Sequence record: PQ724392.1
DNA from: a phage
Direction: 5' to 3' (one strand)
DNA length: 64,000 nucleotides
Every line of letters starts with the position of its first letter. The stretch's first letter is position 1. Positions 7,588 through 32,709 of this stretch are shown piece by piece. The notes beneath the pieces were generated by a model, which saw only the letters and a list, made by a program, of their open reading frames with translations, was not told the DNA's origin and searched no databases. A program made the translations under genes and the position numbers.

Positions 7588-8616
7588 CTAAACTTTTGCG
7601 TACTTCGAAAGTCGCATTCTCGCCATCAACCCTTGAGCAACGTTATCGGCCATATATGATTCGATTTGTTCAGGGGTTGCGCCCTCCGATTTAACCATCT
7701 CATTTATGTCTTTCGTATGCCATGGTGCATTGTCCCAGAACATAACGGCTTCACCCGCTTCAACGAGCTTCTTCATACGTTTAATCGTATCCGGATGTCT
7801 TGGCTCGTTGTCCATTACCCATACTCGGGTTTCAGCATAAGGAACGGCTTCCAATGCTAATGTTCCACCAGTTATCGCAATGCTGTTAGGGATAAACAAA
7901 CTATCAATCGGACCTTCCATTACCCACACGCGCTTGCGCTCATCAATCTTGTCTACGCCATAGACTTTGGAAGCTTCTGGGTGAGCTTTGATTGTGATAT
8001 ATTTTTGTGGTGCATCTTTGCGAAGAGCTCGTCCTTGGAAAGATTCGATTTCTTTTTTGCCGTTGAAGATAGGAATAACCAAGCGTGGTTCATTCGTTTC
8101 ATTCTTATACGTCCCAGGATTAACGGAGTTAACTAATGCAGGCCATTTGTTTGTAAACCATAACCGGTTCCAAACATTGCTCGGAATACACCGACTTTTT
8201 ACATACTTAACTATCGGATGCGCTTCTGGTAAAGTATCGATTCTTTCGCAAAAAGCAAGCTCTTCAATAACCGGAGTTTTTTCTTGTTCTTTCGGAGCTT
8301 CTGCAACTTCATTACGTTGTCGACCGAAGGCGTTTTCCTTGTACTTCTCAACCATATATTCCCGGTGCAAATCCGGCTCAAACTCTTTTATGTATTTGCT
8401 TATATGCGTGGAGTAGTCACAGTTAAAACATTTCACGTAAACCGCACCATCAGATGGATTGGTATACGCCCAGAATCGAGCCTTGTGTGAATCTTTCTGG
8501 GAGTCACCACAAACCTTACAACGACAGTTTGCCTTAAATGTGCTCCCGGTGACTTCTCTGTAACGTGGTTGATACGATAAAGCTTTGACTGCAAATTCTC
8601 TATCAATATATGACAT
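7588..8616 (-). CDS. 61: DNA primase gp61
   Basis: 342 aa (T4 gp61 size); zinc-ribbon CRCKVCGD...CFNCDY; position between 56 and 41. Confidence 0.85.
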   Translation of the reverse strand: MSYIDREFAVKALSYQPRYREVTGSTFKANCRCKVCGDSQKDSHKARFWAYTNPSDGAVYVKCFNCDYSTHISKYIKEFEPDLHREYMVEKYKENAFGRQRNEVAEAPKEQEKTPVIEELAFCERIDTLPEAHPIVKYVKSRCIPSNVWNRLWFTNKWPALVNSVNPGTYKNETNEPRLVIPIFNGKKEIESFQGRALRKDAPQKYITIKAHPEASKVYGVDKIDERKRVWVMEGPIDSLFIPNSIAITGGTLALEAVPYAETRVWVMDNEPRHPDTIKRMKKLVEAGEAVMFWDNAPWHTKDINEMVKSEGATPEQIESYMADNVAQGLMARMRLSKYAKV

Positions 8617-8835: not shown

Positions 8836-9027
8836 TTATACAATGAAGATAGCTTTATTGCCATTTGCATCAGTCACTTCATAGGTGTCTTCATGATACA
8901 ACGGAATAATCCAGGTAACACCATCATCAGCGATAACATGGATTGCTTCTTGGTCTTGCGACACGATTTCATATTCTTCAAAAATCTGGAAGACCGAAAT
9001 CTTAGAGCCCGTACACATTGCAGTCAT
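8836..9027 (-). CDS. hypothetical protein
   Basis: 63-aa ORF co-oriented. Confidence 0.35.
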   Translation of the reverse strand: MTAMCTGSKISVFQIFEEYEIVSQDQEAIHVIADDGVTWIIPLYHEDTYEVTDANGNKAIFIV

Positions 9028-9028
9028 A

Positions 9029-9388
9029 TTAACCTCGCTTCATGAAGGCATTAAAAATCTGGTCATCAATATCAGTAGGCAGTTCTTGAGCTTTAACCCA
9101 AGCCCCTTCCAGAATGTCATTTGCTTCAGTAGATATCATGACCCCAATTTCAGGGTTTCCGGTTATCCATGCTGCACAATCGCGTACATTCTTTTTATCA
9201 AATGGATAGCCACGAGTATCTTCATAAGGTCCACTCATTACCATAAATGAGCGAGCCTTTATAATAACATCATCTTTAACGATAATATAACCAATCGCCT
9301 GATTAAACCGAGGCTCACGAAATTCATAACGGGCATTACCATTATTATTGCTCACCAGTTCAAAATTCAGAAAATTATAATAACTCAT
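9029..9388 (-). CDS. hypothetical protein
   Basis: 119-aa ORF; C-terminus DDQIFNAFMKRG shared with next ORF. Confidence 0.4.
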   Translation of the reverse strand: MSYYNFLNFELVSNNNGNARYEFREPRFNQAIGYIIVKDDVIIKARSFMVMSGPYEDTRGYPFDKKNVRDCAAWITGNPEIGVMISTEANDILEGAWVKAQELPTDIDDQIFNAFMKRG

Positions 9389-9389
9389 A

Positions 9390-9830
9390 TTAATCTCGCT
9401 TCATGAAGGCATTAAAAATTTGGTCGTCAACTGAATATACAGGGGTTTCCAGAAGTTTCAAAAGACTGTTTTTAATGTACTTACCCGGGATACCCATATT
9501 AACAATACTGTCATTCAATTCATTATCAGGGTTGATGTCTTTAAATTCAAACCCATCAAATTCAACCTTGTCAGGAATACCATCAGCGAAAAAATAAACC
9601 AATTGGTGCATTGTATTGCGCGAAAATAATTTAGACTTGACCGCAATAAGTTCTTGCCAATGGTTTAATTCTTTGTTAAGAAGTTTATGAGCAAACGTAA
9701 TTCTATTATCACTATCAACAAGAAAATAACCCAGGTATTGAATGGGGTCGTCGCTCCAAAACATCCTGTATGCTTGTGCATTTTGATTTTTACAACGAAG
9801 TTTTTTGATAACTAAATTTCTGTTAATCAT
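9390..9830 (-). CDS. hypothetical protein
   Basis: Start moved to internal Met (MINRNL...) to avoid overlap with sp-like gene; C-terminus DDQIFNAFMKRD. Confidence 0.4.
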   Translation of the reverse strand: MINRNLVIKKLRCKNQNAQAYRMFWSDDPIQYLGYFLVDSDNRITFAHKLLNKELNHWQELIAVKSKLFSRNTMHQLVYFFADGIPDKVEFDGFEFKDINPDNELNDSIVNMGIPGKYIKNSLLKLLETPVYSVDDQIFNAFMKRD

Positions 9831-9831
9831 T

Positions 9832-10125
9832 TTATTCACCTGTAACCCATTGAACAATTTTGCTATTGTCAAATGAAGCATCGCAATACAGAACATAGTT
9901 ATACTGCATAACGCCACCAGAAGTCAATTGGTCAGATACTTCTTTAACCATATCAGGGCGGTCACGTTTAGTTATGTTCATGATATCAGCATAAATCTGG
10001 TGTTCAACATCAGTCTGGTCAGCAGTCATAGACCACTCACAAAGGTCTTTATCAAGTCCAGCGGTGACAGGTGCTGTGCCACAAGATGCTACGGCAAAAA
10101 TTGCTGCGATAATTAACTTTTTCAT
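9832..10125 (-). CDS. sp: Spackle-like secreted protein
   Basis: 97 aa (T4 Sp size) with N-terminal signal peptide and VASC lipobox-like motif; position between 61 and 41. Confidence 0.45.
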   Translation of the reverse strand: MKKLIIAAIFAVASCGTAPVTAGLDKDLCEWSMTADQTDVEHQIYADIMNITKRDRPDMVKEVSDQLTSGGVMQYNYVLYCDASFDNSKIVQWVTGE

Positions 10126-10184
10126 AATGTTCTCCTCAGTAGTTGATAAGGATAATATACTGCATTATTCCCTTATTGTACACT
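10126..10184 (-). promoter_or_regulatory. early promoter cassette (-35 GTGTAC, -10 TATATT, conserved leader)
   Basis: GTGTAC-N18-TATATT then ATCCTTATCAACTACTGAGGAGAA before ATG. Confidence 0.45.
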
Positions 10185-10525
10185 TATTTTTCACCTTCAA
10201 CTGAAAAACCGGTCAAGTTGTAATATTCAGCACGTGCAATATGAAGAGCTGCTTCAATATCAGTAAGGCAGATTTCTTCATTTAACAGTTGCGCTTCAAC
10301 GGTCAAAATCAGATTACGCAATGCGGTACCCTTACGCATGTCTACTTTATGAATTAGCTTGTCATCAACAAAAGCTTCAACCAGCGCATTATAGTTATCA
10401 GCAGTCTTCTGGACATACCAGTGAATACCTGCGGGGTGGAACATGCTAGAACGTTCAAAAGATGGTACACCAACAGCACTCACTTTGATTGTTACTTTTA
10501 CGCGGTCTTCTGGATTAAAATCCAT
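10184..10525 (-). CDS. Dmd-like domain protein with C-terminal extension
   Basis: 113 aa; shares NALVEAFVDD block with adjacent Dmd-like ORF. Confidence 0.4.
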   Translation of the reverse strand: MDFNPEDRVKVTIKVSAVGVPSFERSSMFHPAGIHWYVQKTADNYNALVEAFVDDKLIHKVDMRKGTALRNLILTVEAQLLNEEICLTDIEAALHIARAEYYNLTGFSVEGEK

Positions 10526-10738
10526 TTAGATTTCCTCAGATAAGTGGATGCGATAATCATATTCAAAAACTTTATTGTCATTAACAAAGGCTTTCACCAG
10601 CGCATTATTCACTTCCGCATACTGCACTGTAACCCATTCAATCATATTTTGGTCACTAACATCCAACATGGTTTCTTTGGTAAACATATTACCATTTTCA
10701 AACCAACCAATAAATACTACGTTCTCTAATTTATACAT
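10526..10738 (-). CDS. dmd: Dmd-like antitoxin (discriminator of mRNA degradation)
   Basis: 70 aa; VVFIGWFENGNMFTKE ... YAEVNNALVKAFVND resembles remembered T4 Dmd; position next to gene 41. Confidence 0.5.
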   Translation of the reverse strand: MYKLENVVFIGWFENGNMFTKETMLDVSDQNMIEWVTVQYAEVNNALVKAFVNDNKVFEYDYRIHLSEEI

Positions 10739-11056
10739 TTAGATTTCCTCGCAGAAGGCCCAGGCAGCGTGATAAACTGTTGCGCCTTTAGTATCATTTA
10801 AACAAACCACGTCAACCGGTGCAATCACACGATAAAGACGGGGTTCTCCTCCATATGAGCGAGCTGCTCTTCCTGCATAGATACGCGCCAAACCAATATC
10901 TTCAGTAAAAAACACACGCCCTAAATTTTTCTTACGTCCAACTTCTGACAGAACACCAGTTGCATCAGGAGGACAAAGCATATTTTGGATTCCAGCATTA
11001 GAGCTTGACCCATGATAATAAACTTTGTATTCTGCCTTGCAATCAATGGTTTTCAT
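10739..11056 (-). CDS. hypothetical protein (HGS motif)
   Basis: 105-aa ORF with YYHGSSS motif; function unknown. Confidence 0.4.
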   Translation of the reverse strand: MKTIDCKAEYKVYYHGSSSNAGIQNMLCPPDATGVLSEVGRKKNLGRVFFTEDIGLARIYAGRAARSYGGEPRLYRVIAPVDVVCLNDTKGATVYHAAWAFCEEI

Positions 11057-11095
11057 TTTATTCTCCAGTAGTTGATAGGGTCATTATAACATAAG
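11057..11095 (-). promoter_or_regulatory. early promoter (-10 TATAAT, conserved leader)
   Basis: CTTACA-N17-TATAAT then GACCCTATCAACTACTGGAGAATAAA before ATG. Confidence 0.45.
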
Positions 11096-11120
11096 AAAAA
11101 GGGGCTGTAAGCCCCTTTTA
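11096..11120 (-). terminator. stem-loop terminator after gene 41
   Basis: GGGGCTTACAGCCCC hairpin followed by TTTTT on gene-sense strand. Confidence 0.5.
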
Positions 11121-11127
11121 AAATATT

Positions 11128-12567
11128 TTAAAATTTCATTTGAGCAGCAAGGTCGTCCAGGTCGCTCCTGTTGACCCTGGTTTGTCGATTCATTTCAGCC
11201 TGGCGATTCATCTCACCGGTGGCTTCTTTAACCGTAGGACCTTGTTTAGGAGCTGAATCATCATCAACCTCATACCAGCGCTGATTACCTTTCTTAACAC
11301 CCATCTTGAATTTATTATAGTAGTTCTTATCACCATAACGAGACTTAAGCTGTTTGATTAACTGCAGCCCCATTTGAGCGAATTCTTCGGTCTCAACAAC
11401 ACCCAACATAAAGTCAGCTGTATGAGCAATACCAAAGGATTCTGCGATATCAGCCATATCAATCTCAGCTGCAACGTTCGCGCCCCTGGTTGTCTGCGCT
11501 GCAGTCCACAGGACCACATTTTTCTCGACTGCCAGACCACGAAGTTCTTCTGCAACCATCTTAATCAGACCGTAACTATTTTCGGTAAACGTTTTCAGTC
11601 TTGAGCTCGCACAGATTGCCAGGTAGTCAACAATAATCACATCCGGCACAAACCCTTGCTTCAGCTTGTACTCGTTCAGTAATGCACGGAAGGTGTCCGC
11701 ATGAGCACCGCCAGTTGGATATTGTTTTATTTTCAGAGTCCCAAGAGTCCCGGAAGCACGCCATTTTTCCATCTTAGCTTTATATTCTGCCCATGATATA
11801 TGACCTTCATCAATATCATCCAGAGACACATCCAGCAAGTTGGCATCAATACGTTTGGCACATACTTCTTCGGCCATTTCCATGCTTATATAAAGCACGT
11901 TATGACCAGTCTGAAGATAGTCAGCGGCTAACGAACAAAGTCCTAGAGATTTCCCGACGTTGGTCCCAGCCAGTAAAACGTTTTCTGTACCATACTCAAC
12001 TCCACCCTTCGTGATTTTATTCAGGATGTTAATGCGGAACGGAACCTTTTTCGATTTGTTCAGATAAGTCTGGAATCGAGCTTCGTAATCGTTTAACCAG
12101 TCATGGCCCAGTGCAGAGTCAAAACAGATGGACAATGCATCACGCATGATGTCAGGGATAGCACCGATATCCGGGATTCGTTTATCACGTTTATCTTTCG
12201 GAAGTTCGGCATTACTCTGGATTTCGATAATCCTGGATGTGGCATTGAACATCGCAGACTTCTGTACATACTTCTCGGTTTCTCTGACCAACCATTCCTG
12301 GTCTTCTGGAGTATCGGCCAGGACTCCTAAGAGTTTCTTTGTGCCTTCGTATTCAACTTCAGAAAGGTCAGAACTGTCGAGCGCGATATCAAGTGCAGTC
12401 TTAGTTGGCACCGCCTGATATTCTTTTACGTGTTCGTTAATCGTATTAAAAAGGGTCTTCGCTGGACCCTTTTCAAAATATGTGCTATTCAGATATGGCC
12501 AGACTTTAACAAAATATTCCTTGTTAAAGAGTAGCTGGGATAAAATAGTTTCTACCACTTCCACCAC
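11128..12567 (-). CDS. 41: replicative DNA helicase gp41 (DnaB-like)
   Basis: 479 aa; Walker A GTNVGKS; T4 synteny between 61 and uvsX. Confidence 0.9.
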   Translation of the reverse strand: MVEVVETILSQLLFNKEYFVKVWPYLNSTYFEKGPAKTLFNTINEHVKEYQAVPTKTALDIALDSSDLSEVEYEGTKKLLGVLADTPEDQEWLVRETEKYVQKSAMFNATSRIIEIQSNAELPKDKRDKRIPDIGAIPDIMRDALSICFDSALGHDWLNDYEARFQTYLNKSKKVPFRINILNKITKGGVEYGTENVLLAGTNVGKSLGLCSLAADYLQTGHNVLYISMEMAEEVCAKRIDANLLDVSLDDIDEGHISWAEYKAKMEKWRASGTLGTLKIKQYPTGGAHADTFRALLNEYKLKQGFVPDVIIVDYLAICASSRLKTFTENSYGLIKMVAEELRGLAVEKNVVLWTAAQTTRGANVAAEIDMADIAESFGIAHTADFMLGVVETEEFAQMGLQLIKQLKSRYGDKNYYNKFKMGVKKGNQRWYEVDDDSAPKQGPTVKEATGEMNRQAEMNRQTRVNRSDLDDLAAQMKF

Positions 12568-30213: not shown

Positions 30214-32027
30214 TGGTGTTTAACCCTATGCATGATTTCTTTATTTTTGCCGAGATTAAATCCGCGTTCGTTCGGATTTCCCAAATAACCACAAGTTCTT
30301 CTTATTGTGTTCATCTTTTTAGGGTCAGTTTCTCCACAAATAGAACAAACAAATCCGTTTTCAGTAGGAGTCATTTCATGGGTACTTCCACACGTAAAAC
30401 ATTTATCTACTGGCATGTTAACACCAAAATAATCTAAATGTTGCGCAGCATAATCCCATACAGCCTCAAGACCTTTTAAGTTATTTTTCATATCAGGAAG
30501 TTCAACATAAGAAATGTGACCACCTGTCGCAATGAAATGATATGGAGCTTCGCGGGAAATCTTTTCAAACGGGGTGATATTTTCTTCTACTGAAACATGG
30601 AAACTATTAGTGTACCAGCCTTTATCAGTAACATCCTTTACACTTCCATATTTTTCAGTATCAAGTTTACAGAAGCGATAACAAAGGTTTTCAGCAGGTG
30701 TAGAATACAAACTAAAAGCAAAACCGGTTCTTTCAGTCCACTGCTTAAGACGAGCATTCATTTTAGTTAAAATTTCTTGCCCAATATCACGACCGGCAAG
30801 AATATTCAATTCGTGAATACCAATGTATCCCAAAGACACTGAACTTCTACCGTTTTTAAATAACTCAATTATATCATCATCAGGTTTAAGACGAACCCCG
30901 AATGCACCTTCTTGGTAAAGAATAGGAGCAACAGTCGCTTTAACTCCTTTTAAGGAATTAATTCTACACATCAAAGCTTCAAAACACAAATCCATTCGCT
31001 CATTGAACAATTCGATAAATTTCTGTTCATTGAACTGTGTTCCAATATAAGAATCTAACGCAATGCGAGGAAGATTCAGTGTTACAACACCAAGATTATT
31101 ACGTCCATCAAGAATTTCATTACCAGTCGAATCTTTCCATACGCCCAAGAAACTACGGCAACCCATTGGAGAAACAGGAATAGATGAACCAGTGATAGCT
31201 TTATTATTCTTAGCTGAAATAATATCAGGATACATCCTTTTGCTTGCACACTCTAGAGCAAGCTGCTTAATATCATAGTTCGGGTCGTCTTTATAAAGAT
31301 TAACACCTTCTTCAACGAACATAACAAGTTTAGGGAAAATAGGAGTTATCCCATCGCGACCAAGACCTTTGATACGATTTTTCAGAATTGCTTTCTGAAT
31401 CATTCGTTCAGTCCAGTCAGTTCCCGTACCAAATGTAATGGTTACAAAAGGCGTTTGTCCGTTTGAACTAAAGAGAGTATTTACTTCATATTCATAAGCT
31501 TGGAATGCATCGTATACGTCTTTTTCTGTTTTAGATTGGGCATAATTCAATGCATCAGTGATTTGCCATTTTTCTGCATCTTCAATATGTTTTGCGTATG
31601 TACGTTTAACATAAGGAGAAAATACTTTGTCTACATTAGCAAAAGTCGTTCCGCCATATTGGTGAGAAGCAACCTGTGCAGTAATTTGTGCCATAATTGC
31701 AGTAGCAACACCGATTGATTTAGGAGTTTCAATCTGTGCATTACCAAGCTTAAATCCGTTCTCAAGCATTCCTTTTAAATCTACTAAACAGCAATTAGTA
31801 AATGGAAGAGCAGGGGAATAATCAATATCATGGAAATGAATAATTCCACTTTCATGGGCTTTCATAATAAAAGACGCGACCATATTTTTGGCAATATGTT
31901 TAGATACAATACCAGCCATAAGGTCCCGTTGAGTTGGAAAAACACGAGAATCTTTATTAGCATTCTCGTTTAAAAGGTCTTTATTAGTTTTATGAATCAA
32001 TCCTTCAATTTCGTTTTCAATTGTCAT
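30210..32027 (-). CDS. nrdD: anaerobic ribonucleoside-triphosphate reductase NrdD
   Basis: 605 aa, the size of T4 NrdD; C-terminal glycyl-radical region RTCGYLG and Cys cluster; contiguous, no intron. Confidence 0.95.
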   Translation of the reverse strand: MTIENEIEGLIHKTNKDLLNENANKDSRVFPTQRDLMAGIVSKHIAKNMVASFIMKAHESGIIHFHDIDYSPALPFTNCCLVDLKGMLENGFKLGNAQIETPKSIGVATAIMAQITAQVASHQYGGTTFANVDKVFSPYVKRTYAKHIEDAEKWQITDALNYAQSKTEKDVYDAFQAYEYEVNTLFSSNGQTPFVTITFGTGTDWTERMIQKAILKNRIKGLGRDGITPIFPKLVMFVEEGVNLYKDDPNYDIKQLALECASKRMYPDIISAKNNKAITGSSIPVSPMGCRSFLGVWKDSTGNEILDGRNNLGVVTLNLPRIALDSYIGTQFNEQKFIELFNERMDLCFEALMCRINSLKGVKATVAPILYQEGAFGVRLKPDDDIIELFKNGRSSVSLGYIGIHELNILAGRDIGQEILTKMNARLKQWTERTGFAFSLYSTPAENLCYRFCKLDTEKYGSVKDVTDKGWYTNSFHVSVEENITPFEKISREAPYHFIATGGHISYVELPDMKNNLKGLEAVWDYAAQHLDYFGVNMPVDKCFTCGSTHEMTPTENGFVCSICGETDPKKMNTIRRTCGYLGNPNERGFNLGKNKEIMHRVKHQ

Positions 32028-32497
32028 TTTAAACTCTTTCTAAGCTGCTTCTTAAATGAAGTCATTAATTGTGTTTTGGTGTCAGATTCATTATAAGTCA
32101 TACCATTCAAAAGCATTTCCCGAATCATTTCTTCTTTCCCCAGACGACCGAACTCTTTGGCTTTGTCTGTTACAAAATTGGGGTGAATATTGTTTTCGGT
32201 ATAATCAGATTTCAGATAGACAAGCAAACTCTCTAACCATTCCAGGTAGTCAACATCGCGACTTTTCAGACCCGAACGGCTGAACTTATGCTTCATTTGT
32301 CCTTCTGTCCCATTGCACAGATTGCATAGTAACCCGCGAACCTTACCAGCTTTTGGCCCGTTCAATTCGTGGTCATGGTCAAGATGGTTGGCCTGAACAT
32401 CGGAGTCCAAATCACGGTGGCAAATTGGACACTTACCAGCTTGTGCATCATAAAGTTTTTGTTTTTCTTCTTTGTATAATTTGCCAGTCAACAACAT
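32024..32497 (-). CDS. 49: endonuclease VII gp49 (Holliday junction resolvase)
   Basis: 157 aa; CPICHRDLD ... HLDHDHE ... CNLCN zinc/His motifs typical of Endo VII. Confidence 0.85.
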   Translation of the reverse strand: MLLTGKLYKEEKQKLYDAQAGKCPICHRDLDSDVQANHLDHDHELNGPKAGKVRGLLCNLCNGTEGQMKHKFSRSGLKSRDVDYLEWLESLLVYLKSDYTENNIHPNFVTDKAKEFGRLGKEEMIREMLLNGMTYNESDTKTQLMTSFKKQLRKSLK

Positions 32498-32532: not shown

Positions 32533-32709
32533 TTAAATCTTATAAAACGCGCGGTGTAACCGTTTAAATTGACGAATCATCTTTTTAGTAGGACGAGTAT
32601 ACAATCCTACACAGGTAGCCATAAACTGGTCAGTTGGACTTCCTTTAATAAGAAGTTTCCAGACCTTGACACCATTTAACTTTTCGGTATAGACTAATGC
32701 AGTTTTCAT
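32533..32709 (-). CDS. small basic protein
   Basis: 58-aa frame translated by hand (MKTALVYTEKLNGVKVWKLL...); TAATG overlap with upstream ORF. Confidence 0.35.
   Translation of the reverse strand: MKTALVYTEKLNGVKVWKLLIKGSPTDQFMATCVGLYTRPTKKMIRQFKRLHRAFYKI

Follow-up and report, generated by a model that had tools for sequence, protein, structure and literature searches.

Gene order and transcription of the dmd locus

The DNA analysed here, a 64,000-nucleotide stretch of phage sequence (PQ724392.1) referred to below as the window, derives from a Gaprivervirus, a T4-like genome (Straboviridae, Tevenvirinae), and its region 9000-11200 is 94-97% identical to the Gaprivervirus genomes TH15, EAWsc9, VR20 and SP18. 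In T4, the interval between gene 41 and gene 61 contains dmd (61.5), tifA (61.4), sp (61.3) and adfA (61.2) (PMC9391042). The window contains the following features in and around this interval:

11128-12567, minus strand: gene 41 helicase
11083..11119, minus strand: stem-loop (11097-11119) overlapped by an early-type sigma-70 promoter, CTTACA-17-TATAAT with a TG extension, just after gene 41
10739-11056, minus strand: ORF105 (phrog_2110), ending ...CEEI before its stop codon, first gene of the ORF105-dmd-ORF113 unit
10736..10750, minus strand: junction repeat copy 1, GAGGAAATCTAAATG, comprising a Shine-Dalgarno sequence, the ORF105 stop and the dmd start
10526-10738, minus strand: dmd (ORF70), 70 aa, canonical Dmd antitoxin orthologue by sequence
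10523..10537, minus strand: junction repeat copy 2, identical at 15/15 nt, comprising a Shine-Dalgarno sequence, the dmd stop and the ORF113 start
10184-10525, minus strand: ORF113, 113 aa, two modules
10328-10525, minus strand: ORF113 residues 1-66, putative divergent Dmd-fold domain, predicted strand-strand-helix-strand-strand
10359-10392, minus strand: 34-nt block in ORF113 encoding NALV.AFV.D, 88% identical to 10575-10608 within dmd
10184-10327, minus strand: ORF113 residues 67-113 and stop codon, portable helical hairpin (predicted) ending SVEGEK
10154..10182, minus strand: next early-type promoter, TGTACA-17-TATATT, which starts the spackle unit and bounds the variable slot on the right
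9832-10125, minus strand: spackle (sp), conserved downstream neighbour (Pfam, PHROG)
between spackle and gene 61, minus strand: two genes with AdfA-like tails, then two small ORFs
7588-8616, minus strand: gene 61 primase

The 70-aa and 113-aa ORFs were thus found side by side, as the initial annotation had placed them, and both are on the minus strand. ORF113 resembles Dmd in location, being part of the early operon that lies between gene 41 and sp/gene 61, and the gene carries the product name "hypothetical protein" in every annotated record inspected. ORF105 is a conserved member of phrog_2110, a family with a function-less label, and an RB69 ORF040c-like homologue of it is annotated in VR7; it gave no match in Pfam or NCBIfam and none to PDB sequences at E <= 10. 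A YHGS...R...Y pattern in ORF105 is reminiscent of ADP-ribosyltransferases, but no match in Pfam, NCBIfam, PDB or PHROG supported this.

The promoter at 11083..11119, which we classify as strong and early-type, marks the start of the ORF105-dmd-ORF113 transcription unit. Its combination with a stem-loop resembles the PeSL cassette, as that arrangement is described in PMC2839356 and PMC4122927. ORF105, dmd and ORF113 are joined by overlapping TAAATG couplings behind this single promoter and constitute one early, translationally coupled unit. The 5' leader behind the spackle promoter is a repeat of 11066-11088.

Across the 64 kb, the 15-mer GAGGAAATCTAAATG has just two matches, with 0.02 expected, and these flank dmd at a distance of 213 nt, the length of one dmd gene; the same junction is also present in ESCO10. 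The ...EEI tails of ORF105 and Dmd, with their stop codons, encode the ribosome-binding site of the next gene. Both the EEI and the EGEK tails, stop codons included, coincide with the Shine-Dalgarno, stop and start signals of the following gene (GAGGAAATCTAAATG, or GAAGGTGAAAAATGA in VR7; L003 2810-2830, L004 2640-2646). Since these tails overlap coupling signals, part of their invariance may reflect constraint at the nucleotide level rather than protein function.

A second adjacent gene pair sharing a module lies nearby, at 9029-9388 and 9390-9917 (minus strand). The tail of AdfA (T4 gp61.2), DDQIFNAFMKRG/D, forms the C-terminus of both of its proteins, and their score against the Pfam AdfA profile (21.5 bits) is below the cut-off. 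The 3' ends and junctions of this pair form a 46-nt direct repeat (9024-9069 and 9385-9430; 93% identity, 361 nt apart). The 175-aa member probably starts at an internal ATG, giving a protein of about 145 aa as in annotated relatives.

Comparison of ORF70 and ORF113 with Dmd

In T4, Dmd (discriminator of mRNA degradation; T4 gp61.5) inhibits the HEPN RNase toxins RnlA and LsoA by binding to them; it is a textbook antitoxin of phage origin; to our knowledge, it has been described so far solely as a single-domain, single-copy protein. ORF70 matched RB69 Dmd (PDB 5i8j, E 4.6e-23), T4 Dmd (PDB 5hy3_B, E 1.4e-16), the Dmd family PHROG 2102 (E 1.3e-33) and Pfam PF17587 (72.3 bits, cut-off 27). The resemblance to T4 Dmd that the initial annotation had noted for this ORF is borne out, and on these profile and sequence matches ORF70 is a true, ordinary Dmd antitoxin orthologue. 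ORF70 also weakly matched positions 236-285 of the 367-aa profile phrog_6532 (E 0.0044) and phrog_24669 (E 0.01), which may represent further Dmd-like domains within larger phage proteins. In Enterobacteria phage Cognac (Krischvirus; L006 1400-1700), dmd is divided between two reading frames, being either a frameshifted pseudogene or the product of a sequencing error; the partial Dmd match in that record was accordingly dismissed as a new paralogue.

The block NALV.AFV.D, reported earlier as common to the two ORFs, was confirmed in both (NNALVKAFVNDNKV in Dmd versus YNALVEAFVDDKLI in ORF113; NNALVKAFVND versus YNALVEAFVDD). BLASTP aligned ORF70 with ORF113 over 58 aa at 31% identity (E 2e-6), and in a six-frame comparison of the whole 64-kb window the two were mutual best non-self matches (E 5e-4 and 3e-3; runners-up 1.4 and 0.84). 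From identical start junctions onward, dmd and ORF113 are colinear, and the shared block is shifted by a single codon (spacings of 213 versus 216). The N-terminal part of ORF113 scored 25.4 bits against a custom Dmd HMM, whereas composition-preserving shuffles reached at most 14.9 bits and none of 5000 attained the ORF113 score. Furthermore, the PHROG Dmd profile phrog_2102 ranked second among 38,880 families (E 9.4e-6), being one of the three matches at E <= 0.01 together with phrog_23762 and phrog_27940, and an hhalign comparison of the ORF113 family with 15 Dmd sequences returned a probability of 91% (E 1.1e-6) over residues 31-65.

Alignment of both ORFs with T4 Dmd, the check that had been proposed for them, yielded similarity in each case: in an L-INS-i alignment the ORF113 domain is colinear with full-length T4 Dmd at 30% identity. 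Its identity to each Dmd lineage compared, that of Krischvirus included, is 26-30%, and the Dmd lineages share 38-73% among themselves; this similar distance to all of the lineages compared indicates a split that is either old or fast-evolving. Of the 24 columns invariant among 15 Dmd sequences, 12 are kept in ORF113, the Trp included (one MAFFT alignment, A6; manual count). The domain is as long as T4 Dmd, its strands and helix are predicted to follow the same order, it retains the Trp and an A-L-V-x-A-F-V/I-x-D ... D-x-R segment, and it shares with the dmd of the window its operon, orientation and start-junction sequence. Wan et al. (2016) are said to have found T4 Dmd W31 and N40 to be needed for LsoA binding. 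ORF113 keeps a Trp (W36) at the W31-equivalent position, whereas the N40 equivalent is Tyr45 (His in VR7) and the Asn is thus absent. Moreover, ORF113 differs from Dmd in lacking the 9-residue loop of the window phage's Dmd and in having an additional 47-aa helical module.

Several results count against homology. The significant alignment between ORF113 and Dmd is limited to the helix and the last two strands (residues about 30-65), and the placement of the first 30 or so residues differs between two alignments, leaving strands 1-2 ambiguous. The GW motif, present in all 15 aligned Dmd sequences (alignment A1), is missing from ORF113. The VR7 version scored 15.9 bits against the custom Dmd HMM, near the shuffle maximum of 14.9 bits, those shuffles having been made from the window's sequence, and the reverse profile comparison of Dmd with phrog_23762 gave no match at E <= 0.01, so that the relationship is not reciprocal.

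Structure prediction by AF2 on two near-identical family sequences was uninformative (pLDDT 43), and an alignment to which Dmd and hairpin-module sequences had been added raised the pLDDT to 86.5. The resulting ORF113 model comprises strands 9-17 and 23-29, helix 31-45, strands 47-53 and 56-62, and helices 67-81 and 88-105. Its compact strand-strand-helix-strand-strand fold of about 60 aa is superimposable on 5HY3_B or 5I8J, although this comparison of a predicted model is partly circular because Dmd rows were present in the AF2 input alignment. A separate prediction, the BFVD model of the VR25 homologue, matched at a TM of about 0.7 over 110 residues. The predicted structure indicates compatibility with the Dmd fold and does not constitute proof of it.

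Could the resemblance to Dmd have arisen by chance, or by convergence on a short amphipathic motif in an unrelated small early protein? Such an origin would agree with the Pfam PF17587 score of ORF113, which at 19.1 bits (E 0.0017; profile positions 29-59 only) falls below the gathering threshold of 27, with a PDB sequence search that gave only E 0.055 and 0.31, with the lack of any Dmd among the ORF113 matches at E <= 0.001 in a search of 1.84 billion representative proteins, and with the partial circularity of the structural support. It is difficult to reconcile with several independent profiles at E 1e-5 to 1e-6, the shuffling result, the mutual best matches across the window, the colinearity of the two genes from identical start junctions with the block offset by one codon, and the adjacency and common orientation of dmd and ORF113 in one operon. 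We therefore regard a chance resemblance as very unlikely, and homology of the N-terminal domain of ORF113 to Dmd as highly probable. The earlier designation of ORF113 as a Dmd paralog stands in so far as profile, shuffle and fold evidence point to a Dmd-related domain, but does not extend to membership of the Pfam family at its gathering threshold.

The C-terminal module and the distribution of ORF113

The C-terminal part of ORF113, initially described as an extension, is indeed additional to the Dmd-like portion, but it corresponds to a separate module that stands alone or is fused to other domains elsewhere. In tblastn and database searches, residues 68-113 matched the C-termini of 120-aa proteins of phAPEC8-like phages (Phapecoctavirus), and metagenomic proteins of 99 and 174-179 aa also carry the module behind unrelated N-terminal parts. 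On its own, it makes up proteins of 50-55 aa (P0020, P0021, P0023 and P0031), and in P0024 and P0026-30 it is fused to other N-terminal domains; all module matches terminate in S-[VI]-E-G-E-K. Compared with ORF113, the phrog_27940 proteins (phAPEC8_0038-like, Phapecoctavirus) and the stand-alone SVEGEK proteins (ESCO10 P0031) have the module of about 47 aa in common, at 44-67% identity and with the invariant S-x-E-G-E-K end, whereas their N-terminal parts are unrelated to that of ORF113 (coiled-coil-like, or an extra domain of about 75 aa) or absent. In ESCO10, the slot between dmd and sp contains, after the same GAGGAAATCTAAATG junction, a 46-aa zinc-ribbon ORF and the stand-alone 50-aa module P0031. 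Judged by these matches, residues 67-113 of ORF113 are a separate, portable module of about 47 aa and not an elaboration of Dmd. Searches of Pfam, NCBIfam and PHROG found no function for the module, its fusion partners or the ESCO10 zinc-ribbon ORF.

A 620-aa protein from the representative-protein search, P0022, was rejected as a spurious match driven by WRIAKSADNYNW repeats. On a 135-kb metagenomic phage contig (L008 1-659, 3001-3165), about 2.3 kb separate the gene for P0021 from an upstream gene with a Pfam match to Gad2 (anti-Gabija), which weakly hints at a counter-defence neighbourhood.

Full-length ORF113 was found in 15 of 50,697 phage records, 799 of which contain Dmd, and in a set of 1.84 billion representative proteins the full-length form makes up only two clusters. 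In VR7 and VR25, a TifA-like gene comes after a version of ORF113 that is 61-62% identical. Between the window and VR7, non-synonymous differences in ORF113 are less frequent than synonymous ones (pN 0.25, pS 0.74; dN/dS about 0.1, with dS saturated), a pattern which identifies it as a real gene under purifying selection; the Dmd proteins of the two phages are 73% identical. ORF113 differs from its EAWsc9 counterpart at 1 of 339 nt, and the flanking genes show pS values of 0.14-0.18; a near-identical ORF113 between diverged flanks suggests recent cassette exchange. The close relative SP18 lacks window positions 10193-10550, with clean breakpoints. Its Dmd ends in ...YRSNEK and a stop codon followed by GTGTACAA, which equals the 3' end of ORF113 (...GEK, stop codon, GTGTACAA), and this state would fit either a deletion that spans about codon 63 of dmd to the final codons of ORF113 or an insertion of that stretch. 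ORF113 thus appears to be an accessory, mobile gene.

These data also bear on whether the Dmd-like half is a decaying remnant, only the C-terminal module being functional and an accidental in-frame fusion keeping the hairpin expressed from the dmd coupling signal. We consider this improbable. The hairpin does exist as a stand-alone gene elsewhere and is better conserved between the window and VR7 than the N-terminal domain (70% versus 54% identity), the two family members share only about 28% identity over strands 1-2 (alignment A2, manual count), and the whole gene is lost in SP18. However, with pN 0.31 and pS 0.77 against VR7, non-synonymous change has been held down in the N-terminal half as well, and all 15 records, as well as both diverged lineages, retain an intact reading frame. 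Moreover, the lineages share about 70% identity over residues 30-66 (alignment A2, manual count), a segment that keeps several Dmd-invariant residues including W, A, L, V, A, F, D, D and R.

Origin and possible role of ORF113

We favour a reading in which dmd is accompanied by ORF113, a diverged Dmd-fold domain joined to the hairpin, which probably originated by duplication and fusion and acts as an accessory inhibitor of a toxin outside the range of Dmd. Under this model, dmd would have been duplicated in tandem at the repeated Shine-Dalgarno-stop-start junction, and the copy would then have diverged and become fused in frame to a small ESCO10-type gene lying downstream. Residues of about 6-66 would have kept the Dmd core in part while many other conserved positions changed. 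[quoted passage not shown] The suggestion of duplication and divergence made in the initial annotation therefore gains a plausible route from the identical 15-nt junctions 213 nt apart; the roughly equal distance of the domain to all Dmd lineages compared nevertheless places the split far back, or on a fast-evolving branch, and the Dmd-like domain may instead have been acquired from elsewhere. A recent gene conversion between dmd and ORF113 was dismissed, as 9 of 15 identical degenerate residues use the same codon (expected 6.3 +/- 1.85), and codon identity not above expectation gives no sign of such an event.

With regard to function, ORF113 would serve as an accessory, stoichiometric inhibitor of a host defence toxin not covered by canonical Dmd, its Dmd-like domain acting as a plug and its hairpin providing oligomerisation or a second contact. 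For an anti-defence role as such, we judge the chances to be about even. PMC7180214, citing Otsuka & Yonesaki 2012, states that T4 Dmd alone neutralises both RnlA and LsoA. Covering these two toxins would hence not require a second copy, and any new target would be a different one; that the target of ORF113 belongs to the RnlA/LsoA family appears doubtful.

The slot directly downstream of dmd, usually that of tifA, is held by ORF113 in the window phage. Like ORF113, TifA (T4 gp61.4, the ToxIN inhibitor) is a small accessory early protein in a counter-defence neighbourhood, and T4 tifA is co-transcribed from a promoter upstream of dmd (PMC9391042). The two types are nonetheless without sequence similarity, ORF113 giving no BLASTP match to the TifA-like VR7ORF041c at E <= 100. 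Since VR7 and VR25 carry a version of ORF113 plus a TifA-like gene, side by side in VR7, ORF113 is not tifA, and its assignment as the T4 61.4/tifA orthologue was rejected. Elsewhere in the window, a 58-aa ORF (32533-32709, minus strand) with a basic segment, RPTKKMIRQFKR, shows weak similarity to VR7ORF041c (tblastn E 0.033) and adjoins ORF 32024-32497, which we take to be T4 gp49 endonuclease VII.

Occupation of the tifA slot, together with tight co-expression with dmd from the TAAATG coupling, would also suit a protein acting on the phage's own Dmd, as a decoy or heterodimer partner, or on RNA, by affecting mRNA stability in a TifA-like manner, rather than on a new host toxin; PMC10853763 describes RNA binding by TifA. 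We give little credence to this alternative, given that ORF113 does not resemble the TifA-like protein of VR7, a phage with both genes, that no TifA-type basic cluster was seen in ORF113 on inspection by eye, and that the LsoA-Dmd complex reportedly does not dimerise (PMC8266594).

A more general scheme, which we regard as speculative and rather unlikely, would extend the model of an accessory inhibitor to a combinatorial counter-defence design. In such a design, the SVEGEK module would be a common adaptor for oligomerisation or host-factor docking, combined with interchangeable "warhead" domains (the Dmd fold here, others in phAPEC8-like phages) shuffled at conserved Shine-Dalgarno-stop-start junctions, and the Dmd-fold warhead would bring a toxin family other than RnlA/LsoA within reach of Dmd-type inhibition.

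No paper on a Dmd-like paralogue came up in full-text literature searches, and ORF113 would represent a new architecture within a known inhibitor family. If the favoured reading is correct, the Dmd inhibitor scaffold can be duplicated, re-targeted and recombined with a module from unrelated myophages, and the repeated junctions offer one possible way in which single-gene cassettes are duplicated or swapped in T4-like early regions. ORF113 is also a concrete candidate for a new pairing of a host toxin with a phage inhibitor.
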